Translations under genes and position numbers: made by a program | Assembly (NCBI GenBank): GCA_043819555.1 | Contig: JBDREQ010000003.1 | Coordinates: forward strand, 32,001 to 96,000 | DNA: 64,000 nt | From: Candidatus Zixiibacteriota bacterium | GTDB taxonomy: Bacteria > Zixibacteria > MSB-5A5 > GN15 > JAAZOE01 | Direction of reading: 5' to 3' | Shown: in pieces, positions 595 through 18,017 of the stretch | Layout of the letters: each line of letters begins with the position of its first letter | Numbering within the stretch: the first letter of the stretch is position 1 | Notes under the pieces: model-generated | Told to the model about the DNA's origin: nothing | The model's database searches: none | What the model saw: the letters and a program-made list of their open reading frames with translations, nothing else

Positions 595-623
595 TTGACA
601 CAATTGGGTATTGTTATTACTAT
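595..623 (+). promoter_or_regulatory. sigma70-type promoter of the nuo operon
   Basis: TTGACA (595-600), 17 bp spacer, TACTAT (618-623), about 25 bp upstream of nuoA. Confidence 0.7.
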
Positions 624-651
624 GGCGGTCAACTATTTGGGACGGATGCAA

Positions 652-1008
652 ATGTTTGAAATATTCTACCCGATACTGGTTTTAGTTCTTCTGGCAAGCG
701 GTGCGGCAGCGGCCATGTTTGTTTTGTCGATTATTGTCGGCAAAAGAACCAAAGGTGAAACCAAGTCTGAGCCGTATGAAAGTGGAATTGCACCGACCGG
801 CGATACCAAAGAGAGATTTTCCATAAAATTCTATATGATTGCCATTCTCTTCATCGTTTTTGATCTGGAAGTGGTATTTTTATATCCCTGGGCAGTAATC
901 TACAATGAATTAGCATTGTTTGGGCTAATAGAAATGGCAGTTTTTATCGCGATTCTGCTGGTTGGCTATATTTATGTTTTAAGAGCGGGAGCTTTGAAGT
1001 GGGATTAG
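652..1008 (+). CDS. nuoA: NADH-quinone oxidoreductase subunit A (start 646 or 652)
   Basis: PYESG and [15 protein letters not shown] motifs; first gene of the operon. Confidence 0.95.
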
Positions 1009-1487
1009 AAGAAAAAATCCCGGATGGGGTCATTCTATCCACCGTTGATTTCTTTGTCAACTGGTCGCGCAAATCGTCGATGTGGCCCTTTGGTTTCGGA
1101 CTGGCCTGTTGCGCGATAGAAATGATTTCGACCTTCGCTTCTCATTATGATCTCTCTCGTTTCGGAATGGAAGTAATGCGGCCATCGCCGCGTCAAGCCG
1201 ATTTGATGATTGTCGCGGGACGGGTTTCCAATAAAATGGCTCCGGTTATTAAACGGCTTTACGAACAGATGCCTAATCCCAAATGGGTCATTTCTATGGG
1301 AGCCTGCGCTTCGTGCGGCGGAGTTTTTAATAATTATGCGATATTGCAGGGTGTTGATCGGATAATTCCGGTTGATATTTACATCCCCGGATGTCCGCCG
1401 CGACCCGAACAACTGATTGACGGTATTATGAAGCTGCATCAGAAGGTAATGAAAGAGTCGCTGAAAGATAAAAAAGGAGCGGCCTGA
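999..1487 (+). CDS. nuoB: NADH-quinone oxidoreductase subunit B
   Basis: [15 protein letters not shown] and PGCPPRPE motifs. Confidence 0.97.
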
Positions 1488-1524
1488 AATTAAAAAGGCC
1501 ACTTTATTTCTTGAATAGATTAGA

Positions 1525-2058
1525 ATGAATCAGGAAAAGCTGACAATTAAAGAACAGGAAGTGCTGAACGCGCTCAAAGATCAGTTCGGTGATGTCGTAT
1601 CCGGGCATGATAAGATTCGCGATCAACTATCGATATTTGTTGACAGCAGCCTGATATTCAATATCGCCCAGTTTCTAAAAGATAATGAAAAATGCGGATT
1701 TGAGATCATTTCCGATATTTGCGGGGTTGACTGGATCGACTGCCCGGAAATGCGATTCGAAATCGTTTATGTCTTTTACTCTGTTCGAAACAGTACGCGG
1801 ATATTAATTCGTACGACAATACCGGATGAGGAAGAACCAAAGATTCTATCGATACAGCCGGTTTATCCCGGTGCGGATTGGCTGGAGCGGGAAGTTTATG
1901 ATATGCTGGGTATCGTCTTTGAAGGACACCCCGATCTCAGGCGGATTATAACGCCTGAAGGATTGGAAGGCTGGCCGCATCGCAAAGATTTTCCATTGAC
2001 TTATGAAATGCCTCAATTCAGTCATAATAAAAATAAACCGCCGGAGATTATTAAATGA
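1525..2058 (+). CDS. nuoC: NADH-quinone oxidoreductase subunit C
   Basis: ADWLEREVYDMLGI.FEGHPDLRRI; P.RKDFPL. Confidence 0.95.
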   Translation: MNQEKLTIKEQEVLNALKDQFGDVVSGHDKIRDQLSIFVDSSLIFNIAQFLKDNEKCGFEIISDICGVDWIDCPEMRFEIVYVFYSVRNSTRILIRTTIPDEEEPKILSIQPVYPGADWLEREVYDMLGIVFEGHPDLRRIITPEGLEGWPHRKDFPLTYEMPQFSHNKNKPPEIIK

Positions 2059-3236
2059 GCGCCGTCGCTTCTGAAAAAACGATGACGATTAATCTCGGGC
2101 CGCAACACCCCGCGACTCATGGCGTTCTGCGCGTTGTCCTTGAAATCGACGGTGAAACAATCATTAAGGCGACGCCTCATCTTGGATATCTGCATACCGG
2201 AATTGAGAAAACGGCTGAAAGCAAGCTTTATTATAAAGTAATCCCGATGACCGACCGCATGGATTATCTGTCACCAATGTCAAATAATCTTGGCTATGTT
2301 CTGGCGATCGAAAAGCTTTTGGGTATTGAAGTTCCGGAAAAAGTTAAATTTGCCCGAGTTCTCCTTTCGGAAATAACCCGGCTCAATAGCCATATTGTAT
2401 GGCTCGGCACACATGCTCTTGATGTCGGAGCCATGTCGATGCTGCTTTATACTTTTCGTGAACGCGAACTTATTATGGATGTATATGAAGCGGTATCCGG
2501 ACAGCGCATGATGTCGACGTATTTCCGTGTTGGAGGTCTGGCGCACGATTTACCTCTTGATTTTGACGAAAAGATCAAGAAAATCCTGAAAGTATTCCCG
2601 GAAAAACTTAAAGATTATGAGAGGCTTCTTTCGAACAACCGAATTTGGATTAAAAGATTAAGCGGAATTGGTACTCTAACGGCAGAAGAAGCTCTTGATT
2701 TATCCCTGACAGGACCGCTTTTGCGTTCGACCGGGGTTAATTATGATATCCGTAAGGCTCAGCCGTATTCAGGTTATGAAAAATTTGATTTTGATGTTCC
2801 CTTGGGCAAAACCGGTGATTGTTATGACCGTTATTTAATCCGGATGGAGGAAATGCGGCAATCGTTGAAGATTATCAAGCAGGCTCTGGATGGTATGCCT
2901 GAGGGGTCCTACCAGGCTGATGTTCCGGGTGTAGTATTGCCTCCCAAGCCAAAAGTTCTGACGGAAATGGAAGCCCTGATTTATCATTTCAAAATAATCA
3001 CAGAGGGCTTTAAGGTTCCGGCCGGTTCTTATTATCAGGCGATTGAGGCGCCCAAGGGTGAATTAGGCTATTATATGGTCTCTGACGGTTCGGCCAAACC
3101 GTATCGGATGCGAGTGCGTCCGCCATCGTTTATTAATTTGCAGGCTTTGGAACCGATGGTCCGAGGGGCTCTAATCGCTGACGTCATAACCTGTATTGGT
3201 TCGATAGATATTGTTCTGGGTGAGGTTGATCGATGA
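2055..3236 (+). CDS. nuoD: NADH-quinone oxidoreductase subunit D
   Basis: NLGPQHPATHGVLR at the N-terminus; GEVDR at the C-terminus. Confidence 0.97.
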   Translation: MSAVASEKTMTINLGPQHPATHGVLRVVLEIDGETIIKATPHLGYLHTGIEKTAESKLYYKVIPMTDRMDYLSPMSNNLGYVLAIEKLLGIEVPEKVKFARVLLSEITRLNSHIVWLGTHALDVGAMSMLLYTFRERELIMDVYEAVSGQRMMSTYFRVGGLAHDLPLDFDEKIKKILKVFPEKLKDYERLLSNNRIWIKRLSGIGTLTAEEALDLSLTGPLLRSTGVNYDIRKAQPYSGYEKFDFDVPLGKTGDCYDRYLIRMEEMRQSLKIIKQALDGMPEGSYQADVPGVVLPPKPKVLTEMEALIYHFKIITEGFKVPAGSYYQAIEAPKGELGYYMVSDGSAKPYRMRVRPPSFINLQALEPMVRGALIADVITCIGSIDIVLGEVDR

Positions 3237-3724
3237 TATTGAAAGATACCACCATTCAGGAAATGAAGAAGCGCATGGAGCGTTACCCATCGCGCCGTTC
3301 AGCTATTTTGCCGGCCCTGACGGCGGCCTATAAGCAAACCGGGCATCTCAACGAAGAAATATATCGAGAGATTTCAAGGGCGATACAGGTTCCTTATGTT
3401 GAAATCGCTGAAGCGGCGACGTTTTATACCATGTTTCCCAAGAAGGAAGTTGGCCGGTATTTAATACATGTATGTCATAATATCTCCTGCTCACTGCGGG
3501 GAGCCGATAATATGCTTGAATATCTGCAGGAAAAGCTTGGAATTGGCATGGGCGATACCACCCCGGATAAAATGTTCACTCTGATTTCGGTTGAATGTCT
3601 GGGAGGATGTTCGGCGGCTCCAATGATGCAGATATGGGATACTTATTATGAAAATTTGACGCGCGATAAGATTGATAAGATTTTAACCGATTTGCGGGCT
3701 CATGCGGAAAAGGACAGTGTTTGA
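3233..3724 (+). CDS. nuoE: NADH-quinone oxidoreductase subunit E
   Basis: CHNISC and ECLGGC..AP 2Fe-2S ligands. Confidence 0.95.
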   Translation: MILKDTTIQEMKKRMERYPSRRSAILPALTAAYKQTGHLNEEIYREISRAIQVPYVEIAEAATFYTMFPKKEVGRYLIHVCHNISCSLRGADNMLEYLQEKLGIGMGDTTPDKMFTLISVECLGGCSAAPMMQIWDTYYENLTRDKIDKILTDLRAHAEKDSV

Positions 3725-3725
3725 T

Positions 3726-5006
3726 ATGGAAAAAGTCCTTTTCAAATATATCGATGAACCGGAACAGTGCTGTATTGACAATTACATCAAGAATGGCGGT
3801 TATCGGGCAATTCAGAAGGTGTTCAAAGAGTTTACTCGTGAGAAAGTCATCGAAACGACCAAGCAATCGGGAGTACGGGGAAGAGGCGGGGCCGGATTTC
3901 CGGCCGGTCTTAAATGGGGTTTTGTACCTCAAAATACCGGAAAGCCGATTTATCTGTGCTGCAATGCCGATGAGTCGGAACCGGGAACCTGCAAAGACCG
4001 GGTGTTGATGGAACGAGATCCGCATATGATTATCGAAGGAATTATGATCGCATCGTTTGCCATCAATTGCCATCAGGCCTTTATTTATATCCGGGGCGAA
4101 TTTGTCTATCCTGCCCAGCGTGTTGAACAGGCAGTTGATGAAGCGTACAAGAAGGGATATCTCGGCAGGAATATTTTTGGTTCCGGTTATAATTTGGATA
4201 TTGTCGTACATACCGGAGGCGGGGCATATATTTGCGGTGAAGAAACTTCTTTATTGTCCTCGCTCGAAGGCAGGCGCGGCAATTCGCGTATCCGTCCCCC
4301 ATTTCCGGCCGTCAAAGGACTATATGGCTGTCCGACGGTTGTTAATAACGTCGAAACGCTGGCCAGTTTACCAAGCATTTTTAACAACGGCGTGGAATGG
4401 TATCGTTCGCATGGGACGGAAAAATCTCCGGGGACCAAAATATTTTCATTATCGGGAAACGTTAATCGACCGGGCAACTATGAAGTCGATCTGGGAACGC
4501 CTTTGTCTTATGTCATAAACGATCTGGGCGGCGGTATTCAGGATGGTCACAAGCTCAAAGCAATTATACCGGGCGGATCATCGACGCCTCTTTTGATGCC
4601 AGATCAGATAGATACGCCTCTTGATTATGAATCGATGGCCGAGGCCGGCTCGATGCTTGGCTCCGGTGCCATAATTGTCATCGACGAGCGAGCATGCATG
4701 GTTTGGGTAGCGATGAAGTTGATTAATTTCTATGCCCATGAATCATGTGGCCGGTGCACGCCTTGCCGAGAGGGTACGGCGTGGTTAAAACAAATTATTA
4801 ATCGCATCGAAAACGGCGATGGCCGTACCGGCGATATTGAACTGATCCTGGATATTTGCGACAATATTATTGGCCGGACGATTTGTCCTCTGGGGGATGC
4901 GGCGGTGATGCCAACCAGATCTATAATCGAGCATTTTCGGTATGAGTTTGAATATCACATAGAGCACAAAAACTGTAAAGTGAAAACGGATTATCCGTTT
5001 GTGTAA
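3726..5006 (+). CDS. nuoF: NADH-quinone oxidoreductase subunit F
   Basis: GRGGAGFP, GAYICGEET and ESCGRCTPCREG motifs. Confidence 0.97.
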   Translation: MEKVLFKYIDEPEQCCIDNYIKNGGYRAIQKVFKEFTREKVIETTKQSGVRGRGGAGFPAGLKWGFVPQNTGKPIYLCCNADESEPGTCKDRVLMERDPHMIIEGIMIASFAINCHQAFIYIRGEFVYPAQRVEQAVDEAYKKGYLGRNIFGSGYNLDIVVHTGGGAYICGEETSLLSSLEGRRGNSRIRPPFPAVKGLYGCPTVVNNVETLASLPSIFNNGVEWYRSHGTEKSPGTKIFSLSGNVNRPGNYEVDLGTPLSYVINDLGGGIQDGHKLKAIIPGGSSTPLLMPDQIDTPLDYESMAEAGSMLGSGAIIVIDERACMVWVAMKLINFYAHESCGRCTPCREGTAWLKQIINRIENGDGRTGDIELILDICDNIIGRTICPLGDAAVMPTRSIIEHFRYEFEYHIEHKNCKVKTDYPFV

Positions 5007-5011
5007 ATAAA

Positions 5012-7567
5012 ATGGCTGGAAACGGAAACAACAACCAGATAACTTTTATCCTTGATGGCCGGCAGGTGACGGTCGCCAAGGGTACGACGATTCTTGAGGC
5101 GGCCCGGCAGGTTGGAGTCGATATTCCCTACTTTTGCTGGCATCCCAAGCTTGATTCAATCGGCGCTTGCCGGATGTGTTTGGTTTCCGTGGAAAAATCC
5201 CCCAAACCGGCAGTGGCCTGCGCGACCGAGGTAATGCCGGATATGATTGTCCGCACCGATACCGAAGAAATTATTAAGGCTCGCCGCGGCGTTTTGGAAT
5301 TTTTGCTTCTTAATCATCCTCTTGATTGTCCCACCTGCGATAAAGGCGGCGAGTGCGATCTTCAGGATAATGTTTTTCGATATGGCGCCGATAAATCACG
5401 CCAGACATTTACTCGTCTTCGCGTTCGTGATGACAGGACGATGCCGACTTTTGATGATAAGCGGATCGGTCCGGAAATCATCCGCAATATGGATCGCTGC
5501 GTTACTTGTTATAAATGCGTTCGTTTTAATAAGGAAATCGCCGGTGAATACGATCTCGGTTCTTATGAACGAGGCCATCATACGGTTATCGATACACCGC
5601 CGGGTGAGCAGATAGATAATTTTTATTCGGGGAATGTGGTTGAGATCTGTCCGGTGGGAGCTTTGACCAATACCGATTGGCGATATAAAGTCAGGGTATG
5701 GAAGACCGAACAGGCTGATTCAATTTGCAGTCACGACGCGGATGGTCAGAATATCAAACTATGGTATGATCATCGTCAGCTTTTCCGGGCTACATCAAGG
5801 CGCAATGATGACGTCGATGAAGGCTGGATTTGCAATGTGGCTCGGTACGGCTATCAATATATCAATAGCCCCGATCGCTTGAAAAAACCGATGATAAAAA
5901 AAGAGGGCAAGCAGGTTGAGGCATCGTGGGATGAGGCGATCGGTCTTATTGCGCGGCGGTTTAAGGAGATTAAAGAATCTAAAGGCAGCGTTTGCATTGC
6001 CGGATTAATAGGCGGAAACCAATCAAATGAAACCTGTTATCTCTTCAATAAATTTTTACGCGGAAAATTGCATTCCAACTCTATCGATTACCGGCTCGAA
6101 TATGCGGAATTGAAACATGACGATGAAAATGAAGCCTATGATAGTTTATTTTGCGCTCCTTGCAAGATAGCTGATTTGGAATCAGCCGATACGGTATTTG
6201 TTTTCGCAAGTAATTTTATTAAAGAGCATCCGGCTGTCAATCTGCGATTACGCAAGGCATATCGAACTGGAGGCGCAAAAGTATATACCGCTAACCCCTA
6301 TGAGACAAAATCGGCCGATATCTCCATTGATGAGTTGATCTATAATCCGGATATGGAAACGGTTTTTCTGGTGGCTGTAATCCACGCCTTAATAGACAAT
6401 AAGCTATGCAAAGGCATCGGCAATGAAAAAGCCGCGGAAATTAAAAATATGCTTGCCCCTGCAACATTGGGCGAAGCGGCAAATTTATGCGGAATCGAAG
6501 AAGTCAGAATTGTGAATCTGGCGCGGGCGCTTTCTGAAGCTGAAAATCTGTTTATTTTGGGTGGAGATTTTATTGCTCGATCTCCCAAACGGCATCGTAT
6601 TGCCAACGCCTTGAATAATCTGGCCAACTTATTGGGCGTTAGCGATCAAAAGGCGGCGATATTGGCATCAAATGCAAATTCAATGGGAGCCGCACGTTTG
6701 GGATTGCGTCCCAATATCCCCAAATCACTGGCAAATCTACTGGCCCAAAAATGGGGTCAAAAAATACCTGATTCTGATGGAGCCAACACATCTCAAATAT
6801 TCAAACGAGCCTTAGATGAGGAAATTGACGCGATATTTATAATGGGCGCCAATCCGGCAATGCGATATCCCGACGGTAATTTCGTCAACGCGGCTTTGGA
6901 TAAGCTTGATTTTCTGGTTGTCGCCGATTTGTTCGAGACAGCGACAAGCGCCAAAGCAGACGTGGTTTTACCATTGGCGGGCTGGTCGGAACAGGACGGA
7001 TCATATCTAAATCTCGAAGGCAGATATCAAAAGTTCTGTCAGGCTTTGGAGCCCGGGCATGGAATCAAAACCGGAGTTGAGATAATCAGGCTGATTGCCC
7101 GCGCCATGGATATGGAACTTGGTCTGGATAATGATGATGAATTGCAATCTGAAGCTCTTGAAATTATCAATGGTTATCAGCGCACGTCTCGAGATATAAA
7201 TGAATTTTACGCGGTTGAACAGCATCAAATACAGGAGCATGGGAAATATCCTTATCGGTTATATGTCGGCAATGATTTGCATCATTTTGGACATTATACT
7301 GAGCATTGCCCTTCGCTGATGCGATTTACATCCGAGCCTTATTTGGAAATATCTCCCAACCTGGCTGAGAGGTTGGGCATTGAAGAAGGCTCACTGGTTA
7401 GAGTTGAATCATCATCCGGGAAATTGGTATTGAAAGCGCATTTATCCGAGCATTTTGAAGGCGAAGTGTTGTTTATCCCGAATAATTTTGCCGCAACCGA
7501 AGTTAATATGTTGATGTCCAAAGAAAACGGCGGTTGGGCAAAAATAGAAAAACTGGACGATAAGTAA
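5012..7567 (+). CDS. nuoG: NADH-quinone oxidoreductase subunit G
   Basis: GACRMC, NHPLDCPTCDKGGECDLQD and CVTCYKC motifs; molybdopterin-oxidoreductase-like C-terminus. Confidence 0.95.
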   Translation: MAGNGNNNQITFILDGRQVTVAKGTTILEAARQVGVDIPYFCWHPKLDSIGACRMCLVSVEKSPKPAVACATEVMPDMIVRTDTEEIIKARRGVLEFLLLNHPLDCPTCDKGGECDLQDNVFRYGADKSRQTFTRLRVRDDRTMPTFDDKRIGPEIIRNMDRCVTCYKCVRFNKEIAGEYDLGSYERGHHTVIDTPPGEQIDNFYSGNVVEICPVGALTNTDWRYKVRVWKTEQADSICSHDADGQNIKLWYDHRQLFRATSRRNDDVDEGWICNVARYGYQYINSPDRLKKPMIKKEGKQVEASWDEAIGLIARRFKEIKESKGSVCIAGLIGGNQSNETCYLFNKFLRGKLHSNSIDYRLEYAELKHDDENEAYDSLFCAPCKIADLESADTVFVFASNFIKEHPAVNLRLRKAYRTGGAKVYTANPYETKSADISIDELIYNPDMETVFLVAVIHALIDNKLCKGIGNEKAAEIKNMLAPATLGEAANLCGIEEVRIVNLARALSEAENLFILGGDFIARSPKRHRIANALNNLANLLGVSDQKAAILASNANSMGAARLGLRPNIPKSLANLLAQKWGQKIPDSDGANTSQIFKRALDEEIDAIFIMGANPAMRYPDGNFVNAALDKLDFLVVADLFETATSAKADVVLPLAGWSEQDGSYLNLEGRYQKFCQALEPGHGIKTGVEIIRLIARAMDMELGLDNDDELQSEALEIINGYQRTSRDINEFYAVEQHQIQEHGKYPYRLYVGNDLHHFGHYTEHCPSLMRFTSEPYLEISPNLAERLGIEEGSLVRVESSSGKLVLKAHLSEHFEGEVLFIPNNFAATEVNMLMSKENGGWAKIEKLDDK

Positions 7568-8559
7568 TGGCTGATTTAACGTTTGCAGCTATAATAACCG
7601 CCAAAGTGATTGTGATATTCTTAGCTGTTTTGACAGGTGTCGCTTACTCCACCTGGCTGGAACGCAAACTGCTTGGCCATATTCAGCATCGTATGGGTCC
7701 GACTTATGTAGGGCCGTTCGGTCTTTTGCAGCCGCTGGCAGACGGATTAAAACTCCTATTTAAAGAAGATTTGGTGCTAAGCCGGGCGGAACGGATGATA
7801 CATGCCATCGCGCCTCTTATCGCATTTGTCCCGGGATTCCTGGCTTTTGCCGTGGTTCCAATCGGGGAACCAATCGAACTGTTTGGATATACTATTCCGC
7901 TTACAATTTCGGATTTAAATATTGGCATTCTATTTATTTTAGCGACGACGTCTCTTGGAGTTTATGGAATCGCCCTTGGGGGCTGGGCATCCGGCTCGAA
8001 ATACTCGCTTTTGGGAGGAATTCGTTCCTCGGCCCAGATGATTTCTTATGAAGTTTCATATGGACTGGCATTAGTTCCAATATTAATGATGGCCGGGACT
8101 TTTTCTTTAAAAGAAATTGTTGCCCAACAGGCATCGGTCTGGGATTGGTATGTATTTAAAAATCCGGTGGCCTTTTTGATTTTCTGGATTTGCGCCATCG
8201 CGGAAACAAATCGAGCGCCATTTGATATGGCCGAAGCGGAATCGGAGTTGGTCGGCGGGTATCATACCGAATATTCATCGATGCGTTTTTCGATGTTCTT
8301 TATTGGTGAATATGCCAATATGTTGACAGCCTCGGCGGTAGTGGTTACTCTATTCTTTGGCGGATGGAATGGACCGTTTTGGCCGGGTCCGTGGTGGCTG
8401 GCAGCCAAGATAGTTTTCTTCATGGCGATGTATATCTGGATTCGCGCAACATTCCCGCGCGTTCGTTATGATCAACTGATGAAAATGGGCTGGAAAGTGT
8501 TTTTCCCCATTGCCCTTTTAAACGTCCTGGTAACGGGAATAGTAATGTATTTGTGGTAA
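7567..8559 (+). CDS. nuoH: NADH-quinone oxidoreductase subunit H
   Basis: GPFGLLQPLADGLKL; AETNRAPFD.AEAESEL. Confidence 0.97.
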   Translation: MADLTFAAIITAKVIVIFLAVLTGVAYSTWLERKLLGHIQHRMGPTYVGPFGLLQPLADGLKLLFKEDLVLSRAERMIHAIAPLIAFVPGFLAFAVVPIGEPIELFGYTIPLTISDLNIGILFILATTSLGVYGIALGGWASGSKYSLLGGIRSSAQMISYEVSYGLALVPILMMAGTFSLKEIVAQQASVWDWYVFKNPVAFLIFWICAIAETNRAPFDMAEAESELVGGYHTEYSSMRFSMFFIGEYANMLTASAVVVTLFFGGWNGPFWPGPWWLAAKIVFFMAMYIWIRATFPRVRYDQLMKMGWKVFFPIALLNVLVTGIVMYLW

Positions 8560-8560
8560 T

Positions 8561-9049
8561 ATGTGGCGATTATTTATTGACATAATCAAAACAACGGTCT
8601 TTGCTTTGCCGGTGGGGATGTATACATCCATTAAACACTTGTTTAAAAAACCGGTTACCAGGAAATATCCCCGTGAGAAAATGGAGATGGCTCCGCGCTA
8701 CCGGGGATTACATTATTTGGAAAGATATGATGATGGCACCGAACGCTGTGTTTGTTGCGGTCTATGTGCTGCGGCCTGCCCGGCCGACGCGATTTATATG
8801 GAACCGGACGAAAACGAAAAGGGCGAGCGGCTTGCCAAAGTCTATGAGATAAATATCATCCGGTGTATTTTTTGCGGATTTTGCGAAGAGGCTTGCCCCG
8901 AGGAAGCGATTTTCCTCGGACATGAATATGAGCTTGCGGATGACCAGCGCGATAAGTTTATTAGGAGCAAGGATGATATGCTGGTCGAGTATCCTCGCAA
9001 AGATCGGCCGTATAAAACGATTCATCGGCGGGTCCGGAAGCATTATTAA
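8561..9049 (+). CDS. nuoI: NADH-quinone oxidoreductase subunit I
   Basis: Two CxxCxxCxxxCP ferredoxin motifs. Confidence 0.96.
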   Translation: MWRLFIDIIKTTVFALPVGMYTSIKHLFKKPVTRKYPREKMEMAPRYRGLHYLERYDDGTERCVCCGLCAAACPADAIYMEPDENEKGERLAKVYEINIIRCIFCGFCEEACPEEAIFLGHEYELADDQRDKFIRSKDDMLVEYPRKDRPYKTIHRRVRKHY

Positions 9050-9070
9050 ATTGGATTTGGAGGTTAGTCT

Positions 9071-9574
9071 GTGACAGTAGAAATGATTGTATTCGCGGCC
9101 GCGGCGATTGTTGCCCTGGCTTCGGCAGTCATGGTCATTACGGTACGGAATCCGGTCGGTTCGGTATTGTATTTGATACTGTCGCTTTTGGCTCAGTCGG
9201 TTTTATATGTTCAATTGTCGGGCCTGTTCATCGCAGCATTTCTGGTGCTCGTTTATGGCGGAGCTATTCTGGTTTTATTCCTTTTTGTTATCATGCTTCT
9301 CAATATCAAATATGCTGATCTGGGACCGGATAGTTATCCGGGAATTAAACCGATGGCCTGGGTATTCGGGGCGGTTTTGCTGGCAGAGATGGTCTGGGTG
9401 TCGATGGGTGTTTCGACTGGCATACCGGCTACCAATGGAGATTTTGGATCGGTTCCGGAAGTAGCTCGGCTTCTCTATGGTAAGTTTGTTTTTCCTTTTG
9501 AATTGACATCAGTATTGTTATTGGCGGCGATTGTCGGCGCGGTTATTATGGCCAAAAAGGAGCTTTCGCGATGA
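9071..9574 (+). CDS. nuoJ: NADH-quinone oxidoreductase subunit J
   Basis: VY.GAILVLFLFVIMLL; PFELTS.LLL. Confidence 0.95.
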   Translation: MTVEMIVFAAAAIVALASAVMVITVRNPVGSVLYLILSLLAQSVLYVQLSGLFIAAFLVLVYGGAILVLFLFVIMLLNIKYADLGPDSYPGIKPMAWVFGAVLLAEMVWVSMGVSTGIPATNGDFGSVPEVARLLYGKFVFPFELTSVLLLAAIVGAVIMAKKELSR

Positions 9575-9873
9575 TACCGCTTGATTATTATATAATACTT
9601 TCCGCCTTTCTGTTTGCGACAGGTGTGATTGGCGTGGTTATTTCTCGAAATATGATTGTCATGTTCATGTCGATTGAGATTATGCTTAACGCCGGTAATC
9701 TGGCAATGATGGCTTTCTCAAGATATCTGCAAAATATGGACGGCCATGTATTTGTTTTTTTGGTGATGGCGGTTGCGGCGGCTGAAGCCGCTGTCGGGCT
9801 GGCGATTATTATTGCCGTGTTCCGAAATCGTGAATCGGTGAATTCCGATTCGCTTAATTTAATGAAATGGTAA
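9571..9873 (+). CDS. nuoK: NADH-quinone oxidoreductase subunit K
   Basis: MSIEIMLNA; VAAAEAAVGLA. Confidence 0.96.
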   Translation: MIPLDYYIILSAFLFATGVIGVVISRNMIVMFMSIEIMLNAGNLAMMAFSRYLQNMDGHVFVFLVMAVAAAEAAVGLAIIIAVFRNRESVNSDSLNLMKW

Positions 9874-9875
9874 AT

Positions 9876-11807
9876 ATGTTTGATTATTTATACATAGTTC
9901 CCCTCCTGCCGCTTTTGGCTGTGCTTATAAATGGACTGCTGTTTAGCAAAATGTCTAAAACCGCTGTTCAAAGCCTTGCTGTTGGTTCGGTAGGATTATC
10001 ATTTGTCGCATCGGTTATATTGTTTTTTAATCTCTTGGGTTTTGATCCCGCGCATCGCACGATTGAGCAGGTATTATTTTCCTGGATTCCAGTCGGCTCG
10101 TTACAACTTAATATCGCTTTTTTATTAGATCCTCTTTCGGCCGTGATGATTCTGGTAGTATCCGGCGTCGGATTTTTGATTCATGTTTATTCAATTGGAT
10201 ATATGGCCCATGACCCGGGTGTAAAAAGATATTTTATTTATCTTAATCTATTCATGTTTTCAATGCTGACGCTAGTATTGGCAAATAACTTGATTCTGCT
10301 ATTCGTCGGTTGGGAAGGTGTCGGGCTCTGCAGTTATTTGTTAATTGGTTTCTGGTTCCACAAGAAATCTGCTTCAGATGCGGGCAAAAAAGCTTTTATA
10401 GTCAATCGCGTCGGTGATTTTGGTTTTATATTGGGCAGTTTTATTATTTTCTGGATGGCCGGAACGCTTGATTTTGTCGCGATGCGAAATGTTTCAACCG
10501 AAGTATTCACTATCGGCGGAACGACAATGGTTACAGCGGCTACGCTGCTTTTGTTCTTCGGCGCGACCGGAAAATCGGCCCAGATTCCTTTATATATCTG
10601 GCTTCCAGACGCGATGGAAGGCCCCACTCCGGTATCAGCATTGATTCATGCCGCGACAATGGTGACTGCCGGAGTTTATCTGCTGGTGCGTTTGAATTTC
10701 CTGTTCGTGATGGCTCCGACAACAATGCTGGTTGTCGCTATTGTCGGATGCCTGACCGCGTTTGTGGCGGCTACAATTGGGCTTGCCCAAAATGACATCA
10801 AAAGAGTATTGGCTTATTCGACTGTCAGCCAGCTGGGGTATATGATGATGGCCTGCGGAGTCGCGGCCTTCACCGCCGGCATTTTTCATCTCATGACCCA
10901 CGCATTTTTCAAAGCCCTATTATTTCTTGGTTCCGGTTCGGTTATTCATGCTATGTCGAATGAACAGGATATGCGTAAGATGGGCGGACTAAGGAAGCAG
11001 CTTCCAATTACATATTTGACTTTTTTAATGGGCACTCTGGCAATTGCGGGTATTCCCGGTTTTTCTGGATTCTTTTCCAAAGATGAAATTTTGTGGAAAT
11101 CATTTTCGTCAGGAAATGGCCATTGGATTTTCTGGGCGGCAGGCGTTGTTACCGCGGTATTAACCGCCTTCTATATGTTCCGATTATTGTATTTGACGTT
11201 TTATGGCGAGGGCCGTTATGACCAGCATACCGCCGATCATTTGCATGAATCACCAAAGGTTATGACAATGCCGCTGGTGATTCTGGCGATCCTGGCGGTA
11301 ATCGGCGGCTGGGTTGGGATTCCTCATGCTCTAAAGGGCGGCGCGCATTTTGAAAAATTTCTTGAACCGGTTATTCGCAATTACAGTTCACACACTCTTG
11401 GCGCCGATGCGCATCATGCTGCCTCTTTAGAATATGGCTTGATGGCTTTGACTGTAGGCTTGATCTTAATTTCAATATATCTGGCATGGTATTTTTATCG
11501 GAAAAATATCGCCAAAGCCGGCTCGTTGCGAGAAACATTCTCAGGGATCCACAAAACCTTGCTGAATAAATACTGGGTCGATGAATTTTACGGCTGGTCG
11601 ATTATTCGGCCGGTTGTCAATGGTTCTGTCTTCTTATGGAAAGTATTTGATGTTCTGATTATCGATGGTATTGCCAATGGGTTGGCCCAAATTACTCGCG
11701 ACGTGTCCGATAATTTTCGTAAAATGCAGACGGGTAATTTGCGGGGCTACATGGCGGTGTTTTTAATTGGAGCCGTTTTATTAATTGGTTTTTTGGTGGT
11801 GAGGTAG
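9876..11807 (+). CDS. nuoL: NADH-quinone oxidoreductase subunit L
   Basis: GKSAQIPL..WLPDAMEGPTPVSALIHAATMV. Confidence 0.97.
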   Translation: MFDYLYIVPLLPLLAVLINGLLFSKMSKTAVQSLAVGSVGLSFVASVILFFNLLGFDPAHRTIEQVLFSWIPVGSLQLNIAFLLDPLSAVMILVVSGVGFLIHVYSIGYMAHDPGVKRYFIYLNLFMFSMLTLVLANNLILLFVGWEGVGLCSYLLIGFWFHKKSASDAGKKAFIVNRVGDFGFILGSFIIFWMAGTLDFVAMRNVSTEVFTIGGTTMVTAATLLLFFGATGKSAQIPLYIWLPDAMEGPTPVSALIHAATMVTAGVYLLVRLNFLFVMAPTTMLVVAIVGCLTAFVAATIGLAQNDIKRVLAYSTVSQLGYMMMACGVAAFTAGIFHLMTHAFFKALLFLGSGSVIHAMSNEQDMRKMGGLRKQLPITYLTFLMGTLAIAGIPGFSGFFSKDEILWKSFSSGNGHWIFWAAGVVTAVLTAFYMFRLLYLTFYGEGRYDQHTADHLHESPKVMTMPLVILAILAVIGGWVGIPHALKGGAHFEKFLEPVIRNYSSHTLGADAHHAASLEYGLMALTVGLILISIYLAWYFYRKNIAKAGSLRETFSGIHKTLLNKYWVDEFYGWSIIRPVVNGSVFLWKVFDVLIIDGIANGLAQITRDVSDNFRKMQTGNLRGYMAVFLIGAVLLIGFLVVR

Positions 11808-11810
11808 GGA

Positions 11811-13382
11811 ATGGATAGCTGGATACTGACAATTGTTACTTTCCTGCCGATGGTCGGAGTTTTGGCGCTTCTCCTGATTCCCAAATCTCACCATATATCG
11901 TTGCGCCATACGACGCTGTTTTTTACCATTCTGACATTTGCCGCGTCTTTATGCCTGCTCTTTCGTTTCGACATTGCCGCCAGCGGGATGCAATTCGATG
12001 TCAATCTGCCATGGGTTGAACATTTTGGAATCGGTTATCATCTTGGCGTCGATGGCATCAGCCTGCTTTTGATTCTACTTACAACATTTTTGACGGCAAT
12101 TGCGGTTCTATCAACATTCAAGGCCGTCGAACATTCTCATCAGGGATTTTATATATCGATCCTGCTTTTGGAAACCGGTATGTTGGGCGTTTTTGCCGCT
12201 TTGGATCTGTTTTTGTTTTATGTTTTCTGGGAATTAATGCTGATTCCGATGTATTTCCTGATTGGTATCTGGGGCGGGAAACGACGCGTTTATGCCGCAA
12301 TCAAATTTGTTCTCTTTACGATGGTGGGTTCGCTTCTCATGCTGGTCGCGATTCTGGTTATCTATTTCCAATATCAAAGTATATTTGGTGAATATACCTG
12401 CGATCTTATTAAGATAACTTCCCTGCCTTTGGCGGCCAATTTACAGCTCTGGCTTTTTGCCGCATTTGGGCTGGCTTTTATAATAAAGGTTCCTATGTGG
12501 CCGTTCCATACCTGGCTTCCTGATGCTCACGTTGAAGCGCCTACCGCCGGTTCGGTAATTCTGGCCGGGGTTCTTTTGAAGATGGGGACTTACGGTTTCA
12601 TTCGTTTTTGTCTGCCGCTTTTCCCGATCGCGACTTTCGAATTTATGCCATTGATTTCTATTCTGGCGGTTATCGGAATTATTTATGGCGCGCTGGTTGC
12701 CATGGTTCAAAAAGATATCAAATCCCTGGTCGCGTATTCCTCAGTGTCGCATATGGGATTTATTATGCTCGGTATGATGGCAATGAATCTGCAGGGTATG
12801 CAGGGTTCCATCATTCAGATGATAAATCACGGCATATCAACCGGCGCTTTGTTTATTCTGGTTGGGATGATTTATGAACGCCGGCATACTCGCTTGATTT
12901 CAGAATATGGCGGTCTGGCGCATCGATTGCCTGTATTCTCGACACTCTTTATGATAGTCCTTCTCTCCTCAATCGGCGTACCCGGTACAAACGGATTCGT
13001 TGGCGAGTTTCTCATACTTCTGGGTACCTGGTCGTATAACAAAGTGTACGCGGTGCTGGCCGCTTCGGGAGTTATCTTTGCCGCATGTTATATGCTGTGG
13101 ATGTACCAGCGAGTATTCTTTGGCAAGTTGACCAACCCGGCCAATGAAAAGTTGCTGGATCTGGATTTGCGAGAGAAGATAGTTCTGATACCATTAGTCA
13201 TCATGATATTCTGGATTGGGATTTATCCTAAACCGTTTTTCACTCTCTTGGAACCCGCTGTTAAGGATGTGATTGCCCGGGTTGAGCAGGGCCGGGCTGA
13301 GTATGAAGCGTACAGTCAATTAACGGATGATGAAATTGCCGTCTCCAAGATGATTGTCGAAGCCACCAGGGAGAGCGAATAA
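11811..13382 (+). CDS. nuoM: NADH-quinone oxidoreductase subunit M
   Basis: KVPMWPFHTWLPDAHVEAPT. Confidence 0.97.
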   Translation: MDSWILTIVTFLPMVGVLALLLIPKSHHISLRHTTLFFTILTFAASLCLLFRFDIAASGMQFDVNLPWVEHFGIGYHLGVDGISLLLILLTTFLTAIAVLSTFKAVEHSHQGFYISILLLETGMLGVFAALDLFLFYVFWELMLIPMYFLIGIWGGKRRVYAAIKFVLFTMVGSLLMLVAILVIYFQYQSIFGEYTCDLIKITSLPLAANLQLWLFAAFGLAFIIKVPMWPFHTWLPDAHVEAPTAGSVILAGVLLKMGTYGFIRFCLPLFPIATFEFMPLISILAVIGIIYGALVAMVQKDIKSLVAYSSVSHMGFIMLGMMAMNLQGMQGSIIQMINHGISTGALFILVGMIYERRHTRLISEYGGLAHRLPVFSTLFMIVLLSSIGVPGTNGFVGEFLILLGTWSYNKVYAVLAASGVIFAACYMLWMYQRVFFGKLTNPANEKLLDLDLREKIVLIPLVIMIFWIGIYPKPFFTLLEPAVKDVIARVEQGRAEYEAYSQLTDDEIAVSKMIVEATRESE

Positions 13383-13603
13383 TGCCAAACGTTAAAATGT
13401 TTACCAAGCCCGGTTGTCCTTATTGCGCAGCGGCGCGAGAGAATTACAACGACCGGGGCGTTGAGTTTGAGGATATCAACGTTATAGATAATCCTCGGGC
13501 ACAGGAAGAATTATTAAAGTTATCCAACGGTGAGAGGATTGTGCCTGTTATCGTAGATAGTGGTGAAGTAAAATTAGGCTGGGGCGGAAGCTGAGGGTTT
13601 TAA
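13382..13603 (+). CDS. Glutaredoxin-like protein, probable Uxx-star selenoprotein (Sec at TGA 13592-13594; C-terminus GGS-U-G-F-stop)
   Basis: CPYC active site and cis-Pro VP motif; in-frame TGA GGG TTT TAA; SECIS-like element downstream; start overlaps the nuoM stop (TAATG). Confidence 0.8.
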
Positions 13604-13604
13604 C

Positions 13605-13637
13605 TCTTGAGCGGTCGTGAACCGCGCCTTTCGCTAA
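13605..13637 (+). promoter_or_regulatory. Putative bacterial SECIS element
   Basis: Counting the U of UGA as 1, U17 and GGUC at 22-25 match the E. coli fdhF register; hairpin GCGGT-cgtga-ACCGC at 13611-13625. Confidence 0.6.
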
Positions 13638-13649
13638 CGGAGAAAAACT

Positions 13650-15104
13650 ATGTCGCAATTAAGTGCGGCCATCAATTTGAATATATTACTGCCGGAAATA
13701 ACTCTGCTTACGGCGGCTTTTATCCTATTGGTTTTTATTCCCCTGATGAAGCAAAAGATATTTTCAGTCGCATTGACAGTAATAGCCGCCCTGGCTTCCC
13801 TGATGTTCGTTGTCAAGTCATGGAATGATCCGCAGTCCGCTTATTTTGGCATGGTTGTCTGCGATAATTTCTCTCTGTTTTGCAAAGCTATTTTTCTATT
13901 CACCTGCGGTTCGGTCGCCATGCTATCGCGCGATTACCTGAAAAGCCGGGGATTGGATCGCCCCGAATATTATGCAATGCTATTGATATCTACGGCCGGT
14001 ATGATGTTCATGGTCTCATCTTCGGATTTGATGGTCATTTTTATCGGACTGGAAATCATGTCGCTCCCGCTTTATGTCCTGGCCGGCTACTTGCGAGATA
14101 ATCTGCGCTCAAACGAATCGGCCGCCAAGTATTTCTTTATGGGCGCCTTTGCTTCTGCCTTTCTTCTATATGGCATCGCGCTAGTATACGGCGGTACAGG
14201 GACAACCGATCTGGTCAAAATATATACTTCAACCGGTATTGCGATTCATCAGTTCCCAATGTATTTCCTGATTGGGGCGGCGCTGGTATTGATCGGTTTC
14301 GCCTTCAAAATCGCATCGTTCCCGTTCCATATGTGGGTGCCTGATGTATATCAGGGCGCCCCTACGCCGATTACTGCTTTTTTCTCAATTGGGCCAAAGG
14401 CGGCCGGAGTGGCAACTTTGTTGCGTATTTTTATGATTGGATTCTGGAGTGTATTTGATACCTACGGACCGCTCTTCTGGATGCTGGCCTTCCTGACCAT
14501 GACGGTTGGCAATATTCTGGCGTTGATGCAAATCGACGTCAAACGAATGCTGGCCTATAGTTCTATCGCCCATGCCGGATATCTATTGGTGGCGGTGACG
14601 GCTGGAAGCAATGACGCGGTTTCGGCGGCGCTGTTTTATCTGCTGGCATACAGCTTTTTCAATATGGGCGCCTTCGCGATTGTCACGCTAATAGAAAACA
14701 AAACCAAATCAAATGATATTCAATCGTTCCGGGGATTGAGCTCAAAACATCCCTGGTTGGCCGTGTTTTTAGCTTTATTCATGTTCTCGCTGGCGGGATT
14801 TCCACCGACGGCCGGATTTATGGCGAAATTTTATGTCTTCTCGGCGGCGGTGAAATCGGGTCTGGTCTGGCTGGTTGTCGCAGCTGTAATAAACAGTTTG
14901 ATATCCGTTTATTATTATTTTCGCCCCCTCAAGGTGGCTTTTTTTGATAAAGCAGAGGGCGATGATATTCCCGCCAAGGGTTTAACGCTTAGTCCGTTAT
15001 TTGTGATAGTCTTAATTTTGACCGGTTTGGGTTCAATTGGATTGGGGATATTTCCAGGTTATTTCATCGACCTCGCCGCGTCTTCTGGTCTGATAATTCT
15101 GTAA
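13650..15104 (+). CDS. nuoN: NADH-quinone oxidoreductase subunit N
   Basis: FKIA..PFHMWVPDVYQGAPTP; KRMLAYSSIAHAGY. Confidence 0.97.
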   Translation: MSQLSAAINLNILLPEITLLTAAFILLVFIPLMKQKIFSVALTVIAALASLMFVVKSWNDPQSAYFGMVVCDNFSLFCKAIFLFTCGSVAMLSRDYLKSRGLDRPEYYAMLLISTAGMMFMVSSSDLMVIFIGLEIMSLPLYVLAGYLRDNLRSNESAAKYFFMGAFASAFLLYGIALVYGGTGTTDLVKIYTSTGIAIHQFPMYFLIGAALVLIGFAFKIASFPFHMWVPDVYQGAPTPITAFFSIGPKAAGVATLLRIFMIGFWSVFDTYGPLFWMLAFLTMTVGNILALMQIDVKRMLAYSSIAHAGYLLVAVTAGSNDAVSAALFYLLAYSFFNMGAFAIVTLIENKTKSNDIQSFRGLSSKHPWLAVFLALFMFSLAGFPPTAGFMAKFYVFSAAVKSGLVWLVVAAVINSLISVYYYFRPLKVAFFDKAEGDDIPAKGLTLSPLFVIVLILTGLGSIGLGIFPGYFIDLAASSGLIIL

Positions 15105-15140: not shown

Positions 15141-17873
15141 CTATAACGCATACATACAGGGCAACGGGCCGCCTTTGAAGATATTATTAATCATATAAAC
15201 CGCATCGCCGACATTGCCCTGGCCATCACAGTTGGCGTCGGCTTCTTTGGGATGTACCGGGCCGGGACCGCCTTTGAATACCATGTTGATGATATAGACG
15301 GCATCGCCGACATTGAAATTGCCGTCGTTATTGGCGTCGCCTGACATTTCCCAGACCGTGTAAGTATAATCAAATAAGATTGCTGTTTCATCGCCGATGA
15401 TATTTTCCTCAGGTAATCCCCGAATGACATAAGGCGTAGTCGAGCAACCCTGGGCCGCGATGCCAATCGTCGCGGTTTGCTCCAGACCGGTAGTGCCGAC
15501 CGATTTATATTGGAATTTTATATTTCCATTTTTACTCAGAATAATCTGAAAGGTCGTCAAAGTATCATCGGATGAATTGAAATTGCCGACCTTATTGTAT
15601 TGAACGATAAATGTATCCCGTTCAGGCGAACGATAATAATATACTCGTCCATGTCCGCCAATTCCTGGATCCATATTAAGATCATTCCAGAAAGGCGAAA
15701 TTACCGTTTTAAAAGGCGCCCCGGGAATATCAAGATCATCGTAAAATCCTTCAAAATTGACATCGGCATCGGTAAAGGAAACGGCTCCGTTGGCACCCAA
15801 ATAAATTTCACTATAAGCGGTATCATAAAAGGGAAAATCAAATTCCAGGGCGATCGGCCCAAACGAACCATCATCAAGGATATCAACCGATGTATAATTA
15901 TTATACCACAGATGAGACGGAGCGATATAACCCATCGATTCGATATTGATCCAGTTGTATTCGGCATCGGCATGATCAGGATATATCGTCGGAAAATAAG
16001 TCGTATCTTCGCATAGGACTTCAAGAAAAATTGGTAATATAATTTCATCATCGAGTGCTTCCCCGGAAGTCCCGAATTGGACCAATACTTGACCTTTCAA
16101 TGTGCCCACATTTTGGTCACCGATTTCAGGTGAGAGGTCAAAATCGAACGGAACCGAACTCCCGGAAAAAATGACTCCGGATGGATTTTGGATATTTATC
16201 CATTCGGCGGTGTTGTCTTCGCCCATGGGTTGAGCCGAGGCGGTAAAATCATAATCCTGATCAATGGATATATTCTCCAGCAGGACCGACATATTAAGAA
16301 CCGATTGATTGACGGCGGCTGTATCGATAAAATATGGAGTGATTGTCAAATCATATGGAAGGGGCAAAATTGCGTCTGCGGCTTGAATATCAGGACGGGG
16401 TCCTATATGCCGGTTAGTGATTCCCTGTTGAGGTGATCCGGTTGAAACCAGGATGTCGCGCATCCTATCGGCGTCTAAATCAACTCCATTGAATCTGTTT
16501 TTATATATTCCCTGCAATGACGCGACGACTCCGGCGACTATTGCTGTTGCCGAAGATGTGCCGTTAAAATCTCCGGTATAATATTGGTGTTCATCGCCCC
16601 CACCATTGAATAAATCGCCATAACCGGCAGTGACAACTTCGCGGCCATGTCCCTGAACGTTGACCCTTTCGCCATAATTGGAAAAATCAAGCCAGGAACG
16701 ATCAGTGCCGAAATTCCCCGAAGGAGGGGCTCCCGCCCCAACCATAATAGCGTGAGAATTTCTCCATGTTGTATCGAACATGTTTTCATAAAGGGCATCA
16801 CCAAGATTTTCGGCGCCATTTCCCGCTGCTTCAACAACAATTATACCCTTAGCCCAGGCATATTGAAGGGCATCGTATATATCCTGCCAGTACTCTATGC
16901 AAATATAACCGCGCTGGTCGGTGCGAACCGCGAAATTATATCGAGGCCCCGGCGCATTAATCTCGATTAATATGATATCGCCGGCGTCCAATTGCTCAAC
17001 CGCGAGCAGTATCCCTTCGCTAATATTGTAAGTCAAATAAGAAGCCATGCCGACTTCGACTGACGATGATATTCCTGAAACTCCAAAGCCATCAACTCCT
17101 GCCTTAATAATACCCATTACCGCTGTTCCATGATTACGAGTAAGAAAATCTCCAGCGGGGTCACCGCCGAGTATAGCATCAGGGCTGAGGTCTAAATCTT
17201 CATGGTCTACAATCCAATCGCCTTCAATATCAAATAGTTTAACTGCGGCGCCATCGCCCCCCGATACCGTTTGCGCGTAATCGGCATCAACTCCGCCGGG
17301 AGCGGGCCTGAGAAAATCCTGATTGCCGGAGTAATTCGGAGTTGGAGGATCAATGTCTCCGGCCGGTTCAAAATGTGGCTGAGCATACGCAATCTCCACT
17401 TCGGGAAGCGCATTTAATTGGTTTATTATATTTTGGGCTTCGTTGGTGGAAGAAACAGTAATGGTGATATAATTGTTAAAGTCGGCTAATTCATGACCGC
17501 TTTTATTTTCAAGAATATTTTTTTTCCGTTCAAGAATGTCAGCCGGTTTGGAAACGAGCTTTTCAATTCCGGCATTTGATTTAGCTGAAAGGATTTTATT
17601 GATTCCGGCCAGATTTTTTCCAGATAGAGAAACTAATTTATTTCCGAACAATCTTAACTTAGTATCCTTGACCAGCTTGACGATAACACGATCAATATTG
17701 GCTGAAGGATCGATTGTAGTTTTACCCGGCTTTGAAACCGGTTGACGTAATCTCAGGATATATGAAGACCCAGTTGTTTTATCATTCTCAACTTGCCGAG
17801 GCATGCAAATTGATGACATGACAAACAGGCAAATGACTATTGTAAGCCGTCGTTTACCCAATAATCCAATCAT
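15141..17873 (-). CDS. Secreted S8 (subtilisin-like) serine protease with C-terminal dockerin-like domain
   Basis: Signal-like N-terminus; triad DIE / NHGT / GTSSA and AAGN; twin GDAN.DG..NVGDAVY.IN..FKGGP repeats. Confidence 0.85.
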   Translation of the reverse strand: MIGLLGKRRLTIVICLFVMSSICMPRQVENDKTTGSSYILRLRQPVSKPGKTTIDPSANIDRVIVKLVKDTKLRLFGNKLVSLSGKNLAGINKILSAKSNAGIEKLVSKPADILERKKNILENKSGHELADFNNYITITVSSTNEAQNIINQLNALPEVEIAYAQPHFEPAGDIDPPTPNYSGNQDFLRPAPGGVDADYAQTVSGGDGAAVKLFDIEGDWIVDHEDLDLSPDAILGGDPAGDFLTRNHGTAVMGIIKAGVDGFGVSGISSSVEVGMASYLTYNISEGILLAVEQLDAGDIILIEINAPGPRYNFAVRTDQRGYICIEYWQDIYDALQYAWAKGIIVVEAAGNGAENLGDALYENMFDTTWRNSHAIMVGAGAPPSGNFGTDRSWLDFSNYGERVNVQGHGREVVTAGYGDLFNGGGDEHQYYTGDFNGTSSATAIVAGVVASLQGIYKNRFNGVDLDADRMRDILVSTGSPQQGITNRHIGPRPDIQAADAILPLPYDLTITPYFIDTAAVNQSVLNMSVLLENISIDQDYDFTASAQPMGEDNTAEWINIQNPSGVIFSGSSVPFDFDLSPEIGDQNVGTLKGQVLVQFGTSGEALDDEIILPIFLEVLCEDTTYFPTIYPDHADAEYNWINIESMGYIAPSHLWYNNYTSVDILDDGSFGPIALEFDFPFYDTAYSEIYLGANGAVSFTDADVNFEGFYDDLDIPGAPFKTVISPFWNDLNMDPGIGGHGRVYYYRSPERDTFIVQYNKVGNFNSSDDTLTTFQIILSKNGNIKFQYKSVGTTGLEQTATIGIAAQGCSTTPYVIRGLPEENIIGDETAILFDYTYTVWEMSGDANNDGNFNVGDAVYIINMVFKGGPGPVHPKEADANCDGQGNVGDAVYMINNIFKGGPLPCMYAL

Positions 17874-18017
17874 TAAAACTCCAATATACCGGTTCGGCGG
17901 CAAGACAGGAAATAGAAGTAGTTACTAATACAATATACACTGATACCCTTTTTTGTCAAACATGTTTCCATGCAGTTTAATATATTATCGGTAAAAATCA
18001 GGAAATATTGGAGTATA

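Follow-up and report, generated by a model that had tools for sequence, protein, structure and literature searches.

Glutathionylation of the 75-kDa subunit of mitochondrial complex I has reportedly been linked to Grx2. In Escherichia coli, loss of GrxD lowers both the cluster occupancy of NuoF and the activity of complex I (PMC11327457). Elsewhere two proteins are described as subunits in their own right: MSMEG_2064, an operon-encoded extra subunit of mycobacterial complex I that binds NuoB (PMC10068793), and NDUFA2 (B8), a thioredoxin-fold subunit seated on the NuoG homologue and proposed as a redox sensor (PMC8762328). Selenoproteins of the Uxx-star family have been tentatively tied to metal binding or detoxification (PMC13188914). 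The present account concerns a window of 64,000 nucleotides, the whole stretch of DNA that was analysed, from a Candidatus Zixiibacteriota bacterium (assembly GCA_043819555.1, contig JBDREQ010000003.1, positions 32,001 to 96,000 of the forward strand), in which a gene almost certainly encoding a glutaredoxin-like selenoprotein of the Uxx-star type, hereafter the redoxin, lies between nuoM and nuoN of a complex I operon. Like MSMEG_2064 it is the product of an extra gene in a nuo operon, but the mycobacterial protein is a shown subunit with a response-regulator fold, is encoded 5' of nuoA and is no selenoprotein; NDUFA2 resembles the redoxin as a small thioredoxin-fold protein, but it too is a shown subunit, without a CxxC motif and without selenium. 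GrxD and mitochondrial Grx2 share the glutaredoxin fold and a tie to the iron-sulphur (Fe-S) loading or thiol state of complex I, but both use free glutathione and are encoded outside the nuo operon, GrxD being a monothiol cluster carrier.

The complete nuoA-N operon occupies 595-15104 of the window, as established from the list of open reading frames (ORFs) and NCBIfam profiles. The genes nuoA-B-C-D-E-F-G-H-I-J-K-L (595..11807, forward strand, as are all features in this paragraph), matched one by one with NCBIfam models although the best matches of A and J lie below the cut-offs, mark it as the operon of a 14-subunit NADH-oxidising complex I, and are followed by nuoM (11811..13382; TIGR01972, 632 bits against a cut-off of 264) and, as the last gene, nuoN (13650..15104; TIGR01770, 454 bits against 333). 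Between these two lies an ORF with a CPYC motif whose start overlaps the nuoM stop, the TAA of nuoM at 13380-13382 sharing one base with the ATG at 13382-13384, just as a preliminary description of this DNA had claimed; GGAG at 13370..13373, within the 3' end of nuoM, is its putative ribosome-binding site. An in-frame TGA at 13592..13594 is followed by GGG TTT and by TAA at 13601-13603, and when that TGA is read as selenocysteine (Sec, U) the gene (13382..13603) specifies 73 amino acids comprising C12-P-Y-C15, V54-P55 and the tail G-G-S-U71-G-F, so that the ending given in the preliminary description, GGS-U-GF-stop, was borne out by the sequence. A second GGAG, at 13639..13642 and 13 bases 3' of the hairpin described below, is the putative ribosome-binding site of nuoN.

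Evidence that the TGA is recoded was obtained from 95 homologous loci in 94 genomes, this genome included: the best 30 of 39 carriers among relatives, 25 from the best of a phylum sample and 40 hand-chosen, mostly from other families. TGA occupied the Sec position in 95/95 loci, and neither TAA nor TAG was ever found there. The next codon was GGN in 90/95, with all four third bases represented, the second was TTY (73), ATH (12), TAY (8) or GTC (2), and the third was a stop in every locus (TAA 57, TGA 21, TAG 17); such codon-structured variation past the TGA indicates a segment evolving as coding sequence rather than as 3' flank. Cysteine was aligned with the TGA in three of 150 distant representatives (P0043, P0059 and P0080), an alignment that the preliminary description had proposed to look for, and in none of the 95 phylum loci, while the family 3 branch has neither Cys nor Sec at that position. 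The genome, which is 97% complete, contains tRNA-Sec, adjacent selA and selB, and a selD that itself has a TGA; across the phylum selA exceeded its cut-off in 190/201 genomes. The preliminary description had offered as grounds for rejecting its proposal a lack of sel machinery, homologues with varied stops and no conservation of Cys or TGA, and absence of the insert from relatives; the machinery is present, the TGA is conserved and has Cys homologues, and the insert is kept in relatives. Together with the profile score and the covarying hairpin considered below, these results strongly support the selenoprotein it had proposed.

That the TGA might nonetheless be a true stop, with the protein ending at residue 70 as databases annotate it, would accord with the length of most database copies of the homologues (70-71 amino acids, cut at the UGA) and with the existence of the family 3 relatives lacking both Sec and Cys. 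Set against the codon-structured conservation past the TGA, the unfailing stop at the third codon after it, the absence of TAA and TAG from the first site in all 95 loci, the Cys homologues and the covariation of the downstream hairpin, this alternative is barely credible.

The hairpin in question, at 13611..13625 on the forward strand and 3' of the terminal stop, is of the bacterial selenocysteine insertion sequence (SECIS) type. Its formation had been considered possible in the preliminary description, and it does form, its significance becoming apparent by comparison across loci. Alone it is ordinary, folding at -7.2 kcal/mol (z -0.8), while the 49 bases from the UGA fold at -11.5 kcal/mol. 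A perfect stem of at least 6 bp was located 3' of the stop in 85/95 homologous segments versus 52/380 coding-sequence control segments, and a loop G-U was kept in 86/95 loci, the G lying 20-29 bases from the U of the UGA. When RNAalifold was applied to 34 of the 95 rows, picked for similar spacing, six pairs were recovered, each with double-sided changes and together pairing in 90.7% of cells; the covariation score was reached by 0/500 shuffles, and slid controls paired at 27-58%. Published rules for bacterial SECIS elements specify a loop of 3-9 nt, a stem of 4-16 bp, G in one of the first two loop places, a position 16-37 nt past the UGA and an energy of -7.5 kcal/mol or lower (PMC13188914). 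With a loop of 5 nt (13616-13620), a stem of 5 bp, G in second place and a distance of 21 nt the window hairpin conforms to all but the last of these, from which the isolated element falls short by 0.3 kcal/mol, a point to be counted against it. The preliminary description had also assigned the hairpin to the register of the E. coli fdhF SECIS; U17 and G22-G23-U24-C25 (U of UGA = 1) are indeed present, but the register is probably coincidental because, judged from the pairing here alone, G22-G23-U24 are stem bases and it is G26-U27 that is conserved in the loop, G26 being its invariant G. Three further genes of this genome with a UxxC motif, at G000:C15:21015 (-), G000:C31:90246 (+) and G000:C76:53747 (-), have this loop 3' of their UGA and are probable selenoproteins as well, and G000:C10:6529 (+) is an additional candidate with G-G-U.

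Family membership was assigned with profiles, U being read as C. The redoxin scored 110 bits against the Uxx-star model NF041212 (cut-off 66), covering profile positions 1-70 of 70; with this score, and with U-x-x-stop in 95/95 loci, the earlier assignment to the glutaredoxin-like proteins with a C-terminal U-x-x-stop was upheld. Among the sub-models of NF041212 (NF041114, NF041211, NF047338 and NF045501), the redoxin exceeded the cut-off of NF041114 (UXX-star family 1; 81.9 bits against 72) and fell below those of families 2 and 3 and of the fusion model. Family 1 is listed in a review with an N-terminal UxxT and two Sec (PMC13188914), versus CPYC and one Sec here. Among the closest homologues are two, at 88% and 74% identity, that their source assigns by name to the Zixibacteria; another close homologue on a short contig (P0018, 60% identity) ends G-G-G-S-C-F, with Cys one place past the Sec position. 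The redoxin thus has the fold, size and C-terminal U-x-x-stop of the Uxx-star family, from whose members elsewhere it differs as a single copy in a respiratory operon; the family being already known, the placement between nuoM and nuoN is a new context for it.

Scores against the better-known relatives were low: 33.8 bits for TIGR02194 (NrdH; cut-off 85.75), the ribonucleotide reductase gene lying on a different contig, and 46.9 bits for TIGR02181 (glutaredoxin; cut-off 90). With classical glutathione-dependent glutaredoxins the redoxin has in common the CxxC motif (CPYC in 82/95 loci) and the Val-Pro motif (V54-P55, invariant), but the C-terminal helix that in those proteins follows the GG kink is missing from its model, in which no helix extends past residue 47. 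NrdH-redoxins and small dithiol glutaredoxins likewise share the fold, CPYC and Val-Pro, but the redoxin has no C-terminal helix, ends in a Gly-rich Sec tail and is not encoded beside nrd genes.

Within the phylum the gene is both widespread and fixed in position. A match over the cut-off was recorded in 137/201 sampled genomes, and among the 95 loci nuoM lay upstream in 91, nuoN downstream in 93 and both in 89, the six loci without both flanks being five contig ends and one assembly gap; the nuoM-redoxin-nuoN synteny that the preliminary description had proposed to look for in relatives thus extends over 11 families. No relocated copy was found among the loci read. The start lay between -14 and +5 bases from the nuoM stop in 77/89 scored loci, and the median distance from terminal stop to nuoN start was 40 bases. 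All 20 of the carrier operons fetched whole were of the 14-subunit kind with nuoE, F and G. By way of contrast, a second nuo operon of this genome (G000:C68:2007-11894), of 11 subunits and without nuoE, F and G, has no redoxin, its nuoM running straight into nuoN; separate nuoE/F/G-like clusters occur on C76 and C19. Two complex I types were also recorded for the first Zixibacteria genome, in a paper whose main text mentions neither glutaredoxin nor selenoproteins (PMC3903129).

Crude ratios of nonsynonymous to synonymous differences (pN/pS) of 0.02-0.31 in 10 pairs indicate that the protein is under purifying selection, and the correlation of redoxin with Nuo identities (Spearman 0.41, equalled in 2/2000 permutations; 21 genomes) suggests vertical inheritance. 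A scan of a genome collection with a single redoxin protein returned 4 loci; one locus labelled Ignavibacteriales (L101, nuoL-M-redoxin-N) was considered as an instance of spread outside the phylum and rejected, its proteins being of the type seen in this phylum. No description of a redoxin between nuoM and nuoN was found in the literature searched, a body that did not include the primary Uxx-star papers and supplements; the main text of PMC13188914 contains neither 'nuo' nor 'complex I', and the BSepDB text neither 'nuo' nor 'UXX'.

Structural modelling was undertaken with Cys in place of Sec. The AlphaFold model (predicted local distance difference test, pLDDT, 89) comprised four strands and two helices in a glutaredoxin/NrdH fold without the last helix; the relatives recovered were BC3987 (3zij), Corynebacterium glutamicum NrdH (4fiw), cGrx1 (7c10) and E. 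coli Grx3 (3grx), and the fold matches included Z 11.2 with a root-mean-square deviation (rmsd) of 1.6 over 66 residues and Z 11.0 with an rmsd of 1.1 over 64. In an 80-row alignment C12, P13, V54, P55, G69 and U71 were invariant, and C15 was replaced by Ser in 3/95 loci. Bridges were assigned in the full model to residues 53-54 and to residues 71-72; when the same rows were modelled only as far as the UGA, the bridge at 53-54 disappeared and the tail fell below pLDDT 50, residues 61-70 averaging 68 versus 84 in the full model. On the simplest reading of these models U71-G72 would pair with I53-V54, just before the conserved proline, which suggests docking of the U-G-F tail where glutathione binds in glutaredoxins, since the motif that precedes the cis-proline belongs to that binding site (PMC3530482). 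A match to glutathione synthetase (gshB) was not found in this genome, and BshA and thioredoxin reductase (TrxR) were. The Sec-Gly of the tail mirrors the Cys-Gly of glutathione, and the redoxin, as modelled, may carry its own resolving selenol.

By the mechanism that we propose, a minimal redoxin of glutaredoxin/NrdH fold would be made from the complex I operon, its translation coupled to that of nuoM; SelB bound to the downstream hairpin would direct insertion of Sec at the UGA, and translation would stop two codons later. A target's disulfide or mixed disulfide would come under attack from Cys12; the flexible Gly-Gly-x-Sec-Gly-Phe tail would fold over into the groove occupied by glutathione in classical glutaredoxins, and Sec71 would resolve the intermediate as a Cys12-Sec71 selenenylsulfide, the redoxin then being re-reduced by thioredoxin reductase or bacillithiol. 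The chief targets would be cysteines in NuoE, F and G, the arm with the flavin and Fe-S centres, at assembly or after oxidative damage, and the redoxin would be a helpful but non-essential accessory rather than a core subunit. It is the operon position, the tight coupling to nuoM and the restriction to the flavin-bearing complex that point to complex I. Taken whole, link to complex I included, the reading of the protein as a selenium redoxin that resolves its own intermediates and serves the NADH-oxidising complex without being essential is advanced tentatively, its likelihood being judged a little short of even. The preliminary description had proposed a Sec-dependent redox or Fe-S partner co-expressed with complex I; of this the selenoprotein and its conserved operon placement stand, while partnership is a step taken by inference.

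A number of observations weigh against this reading. Full nuoA-N without an intact redoxin occurred in 15/20 of the non-carrier regions fetched, the other five being partial operons, and at least 8 changes of state, gain or loss, were required on a quick Nuo tree of 36 hand-picked genomes (21 carriers and 15 non-carriers), on which the two states are interleaved. No Nuo cysteine was found to co-segregate with the redoxin in the 14 subunits of those 21 carriers and 15 non-carriers. The redoxin is the only PF00462 gene over the cut-off in its genome and could serve other clients. The docking of the tail was read from secondary-structure codes of Cys-for-Sec models rather than from coordinates. 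In a metagenome scan covering family-3-type proteins only, 0/40 loci, many of them on short contigs, adjoined a nuo gene, from which it follows that the family as such is not tied to complex I. Finally, nuo operons accept other inserts, among them methyltransferase, tetratricopeptide repeat (TPR), transposase-like and nuclease-like ORFs. A more general role is conceivable in view of the repeated loss with all 14 subunits kept, the lack of a tracking Nuo cysteine and the status of the gene as the only glutaredoxin-family member over the cut-off in this genome. A predicted complex of NuoG (851 residues, 20 rows) with the UGA-cut redoxin (70 residues, 80 rows) scored 0.00 against a mark of 0.32, with the controls not folded; it carries no weight either way, and NuoG is only one of numerous candidate partners.

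The losses themselves are instructive with respect to what remains. Of 65 genomes without a match over the cut-off, the best 30 nuoN matches were read, 28 of them with a nuoM junction: 23 had no remnant, four (L105, L107, L108 and L110) were deletion relics in which the redoxin core had gone and a stem was kept, two of these retaining the U-x-x-stop codons, and one had a frameshift. The loop G-U was lost in 3/4 deletion relics versus its retention in 86/95 intact loci, which suggests that the signal for SelB erodes after loss of the protein. One early insertion followed by about nine losses would best fit the single position, and on these comparisons the redoxin is dispensable for organisms that keep complex I.

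The most substantial of the alternatives, possible but unlikely, is that an early ancestor acquired between nuoM and nuoN a general-purpose selenium redoxin, acting on ribonucleotide reductase or in debacillithiolation, which has been retained because expression from the operon is good and only exact deletions leave both neighbours unharmed. It would be in keeping with the redoxin's position as the sole glutaredoxin-family gene over the cut-off, with the presence of ribonucleotide reductase and of BshA in a genome where no BrxA/B-family bacilliredoxin was found, with repeated loss from intact complex I operons that admit other inserts, and with the unrelated genes that adjoin homologues elsewhere; against it, no relocated copy exists among 95 loci in families whose mean Nuo identity is 56%. 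Nor does bshA track the redoxin across the phylum, being found in most redoxin-less genomes of families f6, f7, f9, f10 and f14 and not found in f12 genomes, a carrier included. It is quite improbable that the redoxin is instead a stoichiometric fifteenth subunit, a selenium counterpart of NDUFA2 and MSMEG_2064 acting as stabiliser or redox switch on the peripheral arm: the place in the operon, together with translational coupling, would bring synthesis close to 1:1, and the two proteins offer precedents on NuoG and NuoB, but loss has been frequent and independent even within genera-level neighbours, and surface positions vary freely while the active site is fixed. Insertion of Sec is, moreover, usually inefficient, a property easier to reconcile with a catalyst than with a subunit needed at 1:1.

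Two further possibilities concern the metal centres of the complex and the expression of its last gene. A dimer might hold a [2Fe-2S] cluster, with Cys12 and the tail Sec replacing the glutathione ligands, and feed it to the peripheral arm, a proposal for which the effects of GrxD loss, the modelled location of the tail where glutathione would sit and a review's suggestion that Sec may serve these proteins as a metal ligand (PMC13188914) could all be cited. It is very unlikely, in that the 11-subunit complex also needs Fe-S clusters but is encoded without a copy, and the Pro after Cys12 is invariant. To our knowledge, CPYC glutaredoxins generally do not bind clusters. Alternatively the UGA, SelB and the hairpin might act in cis, gating translation of nuoN by selenium or ribosome traffic and leaving the protein secondary. 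The hairpin does lie just before the nuoN start, at the short median spacing already given, and the four relics keep their stem without the redoxin core, two with U-x-x-stop; but any deletion stopping short of the nuoN start would leave this end behind in any case, the loop G-U has mostly gone from those relics, the protein itself is under purifying selection and 23 of the 28 readable non-carrier junctions have no remnant, so that cis control is rated as highly improbable.

Further observations concern the Nuo proteins and the other inserts. NuoF C87 (18/21 carriers versus 6/14 non-carriers) and C97 (15/21 versus 4/14) were considered as co-segregating residues and set aside because they follow kinship. 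In nuoG (window 5012-7567) a four-Cys motif at residues 239-274, probably the ligand of cluster N7, is degenerate (C-D-Q-C), as it also is in f1, f2, f3 and f9; it is intact in most others and does not track the redoxin. A conserved gene of S-adenosylmethionine (SAM)-methyltransferase fold with a CxxC lies between nuoL and nuoM in three redoxin-less genomes of f9 and f14 (L225:13892-14617, L226:3506-4252 and L228:13810-14559); no NCBIfam model matched it over the cut-off, and it could be another lineage-specific accessory of complex I. The remaining inserts were a TPR protein between nuoE and nuoF (L248:12023-13039) and, both named by eye, a transposase-like ORF between nuoD and nuoE (L243:12864-13478) and a nuclease-like ORF between nuoM and nuoN (L233:15336-15767).

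The high-GC family-3 homologues (L135-L174) mostly end G-G-x-x-F without Cys or Sec, L140 having TGA there, and are neighboured by genes for acyl-CoA dehydrogenase, lytic transglycosylase, thiolase and class I tRNA synthetase; to judge from such endings the Uxx-star tail may act in some way that is independent of its chalcogen. Many of the phylum's genomes (G064:C1, G065:C1, G104:C1, G119:C6, G042:C22, G055:C3, G091:C6, G136:C14 and G069:C8) have bshA within a few kb of selA on a single contig, which would reflect either a connection of bacillithiol with selenium metabolism or simply a housekeeping cluster. Within the window, internal promoter matches between 12800 and 15300 numbered 7 versus 4.8 expected and terminator matches 4 versus 3.1, the SECIS-type hairpin being absent from the terminator-like sites found there. 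A 147-residue ORF directly before nuoA (13-456) has no NCBIfam match and is kept upstream of the nuo operon in 13/40 fetched regions, all of one order, and a protease named by eye as subtilase-like, whose C-terminus bears a dockerin-like repeat, converges on the end of nuoN (15141-17903, reverse strand).

The Uxx-star family has been catalogued while its function is untested, and a fixed single-copy place in one operon supplies a concrete candidate for a client, with natural controls in the relatives that lost the redoxin and in the second complex I that lacks it. It is doubtful that most Zixibacteria employ, in making or maintaining their NADH-oxidising complex I, a dedicated selenoprotein: a minimal glutaredoxin with a tethered selenium counterpart of glutathione, bound at the peripheral arm or recruited to it. 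Were this so, the redoxin would, as far as the literature searched goes, be the first selenoprotein accessory of respiratory complex I, convergent with the roles of mitochondrial Grx2 and NDUFA2, and the Uxx-star family would gain a mechanism; if the tail is indeed a tethered seleno-glutathione, it would account both for the U-x-x ending and for a glutaredoxin fold that works without glutathione.

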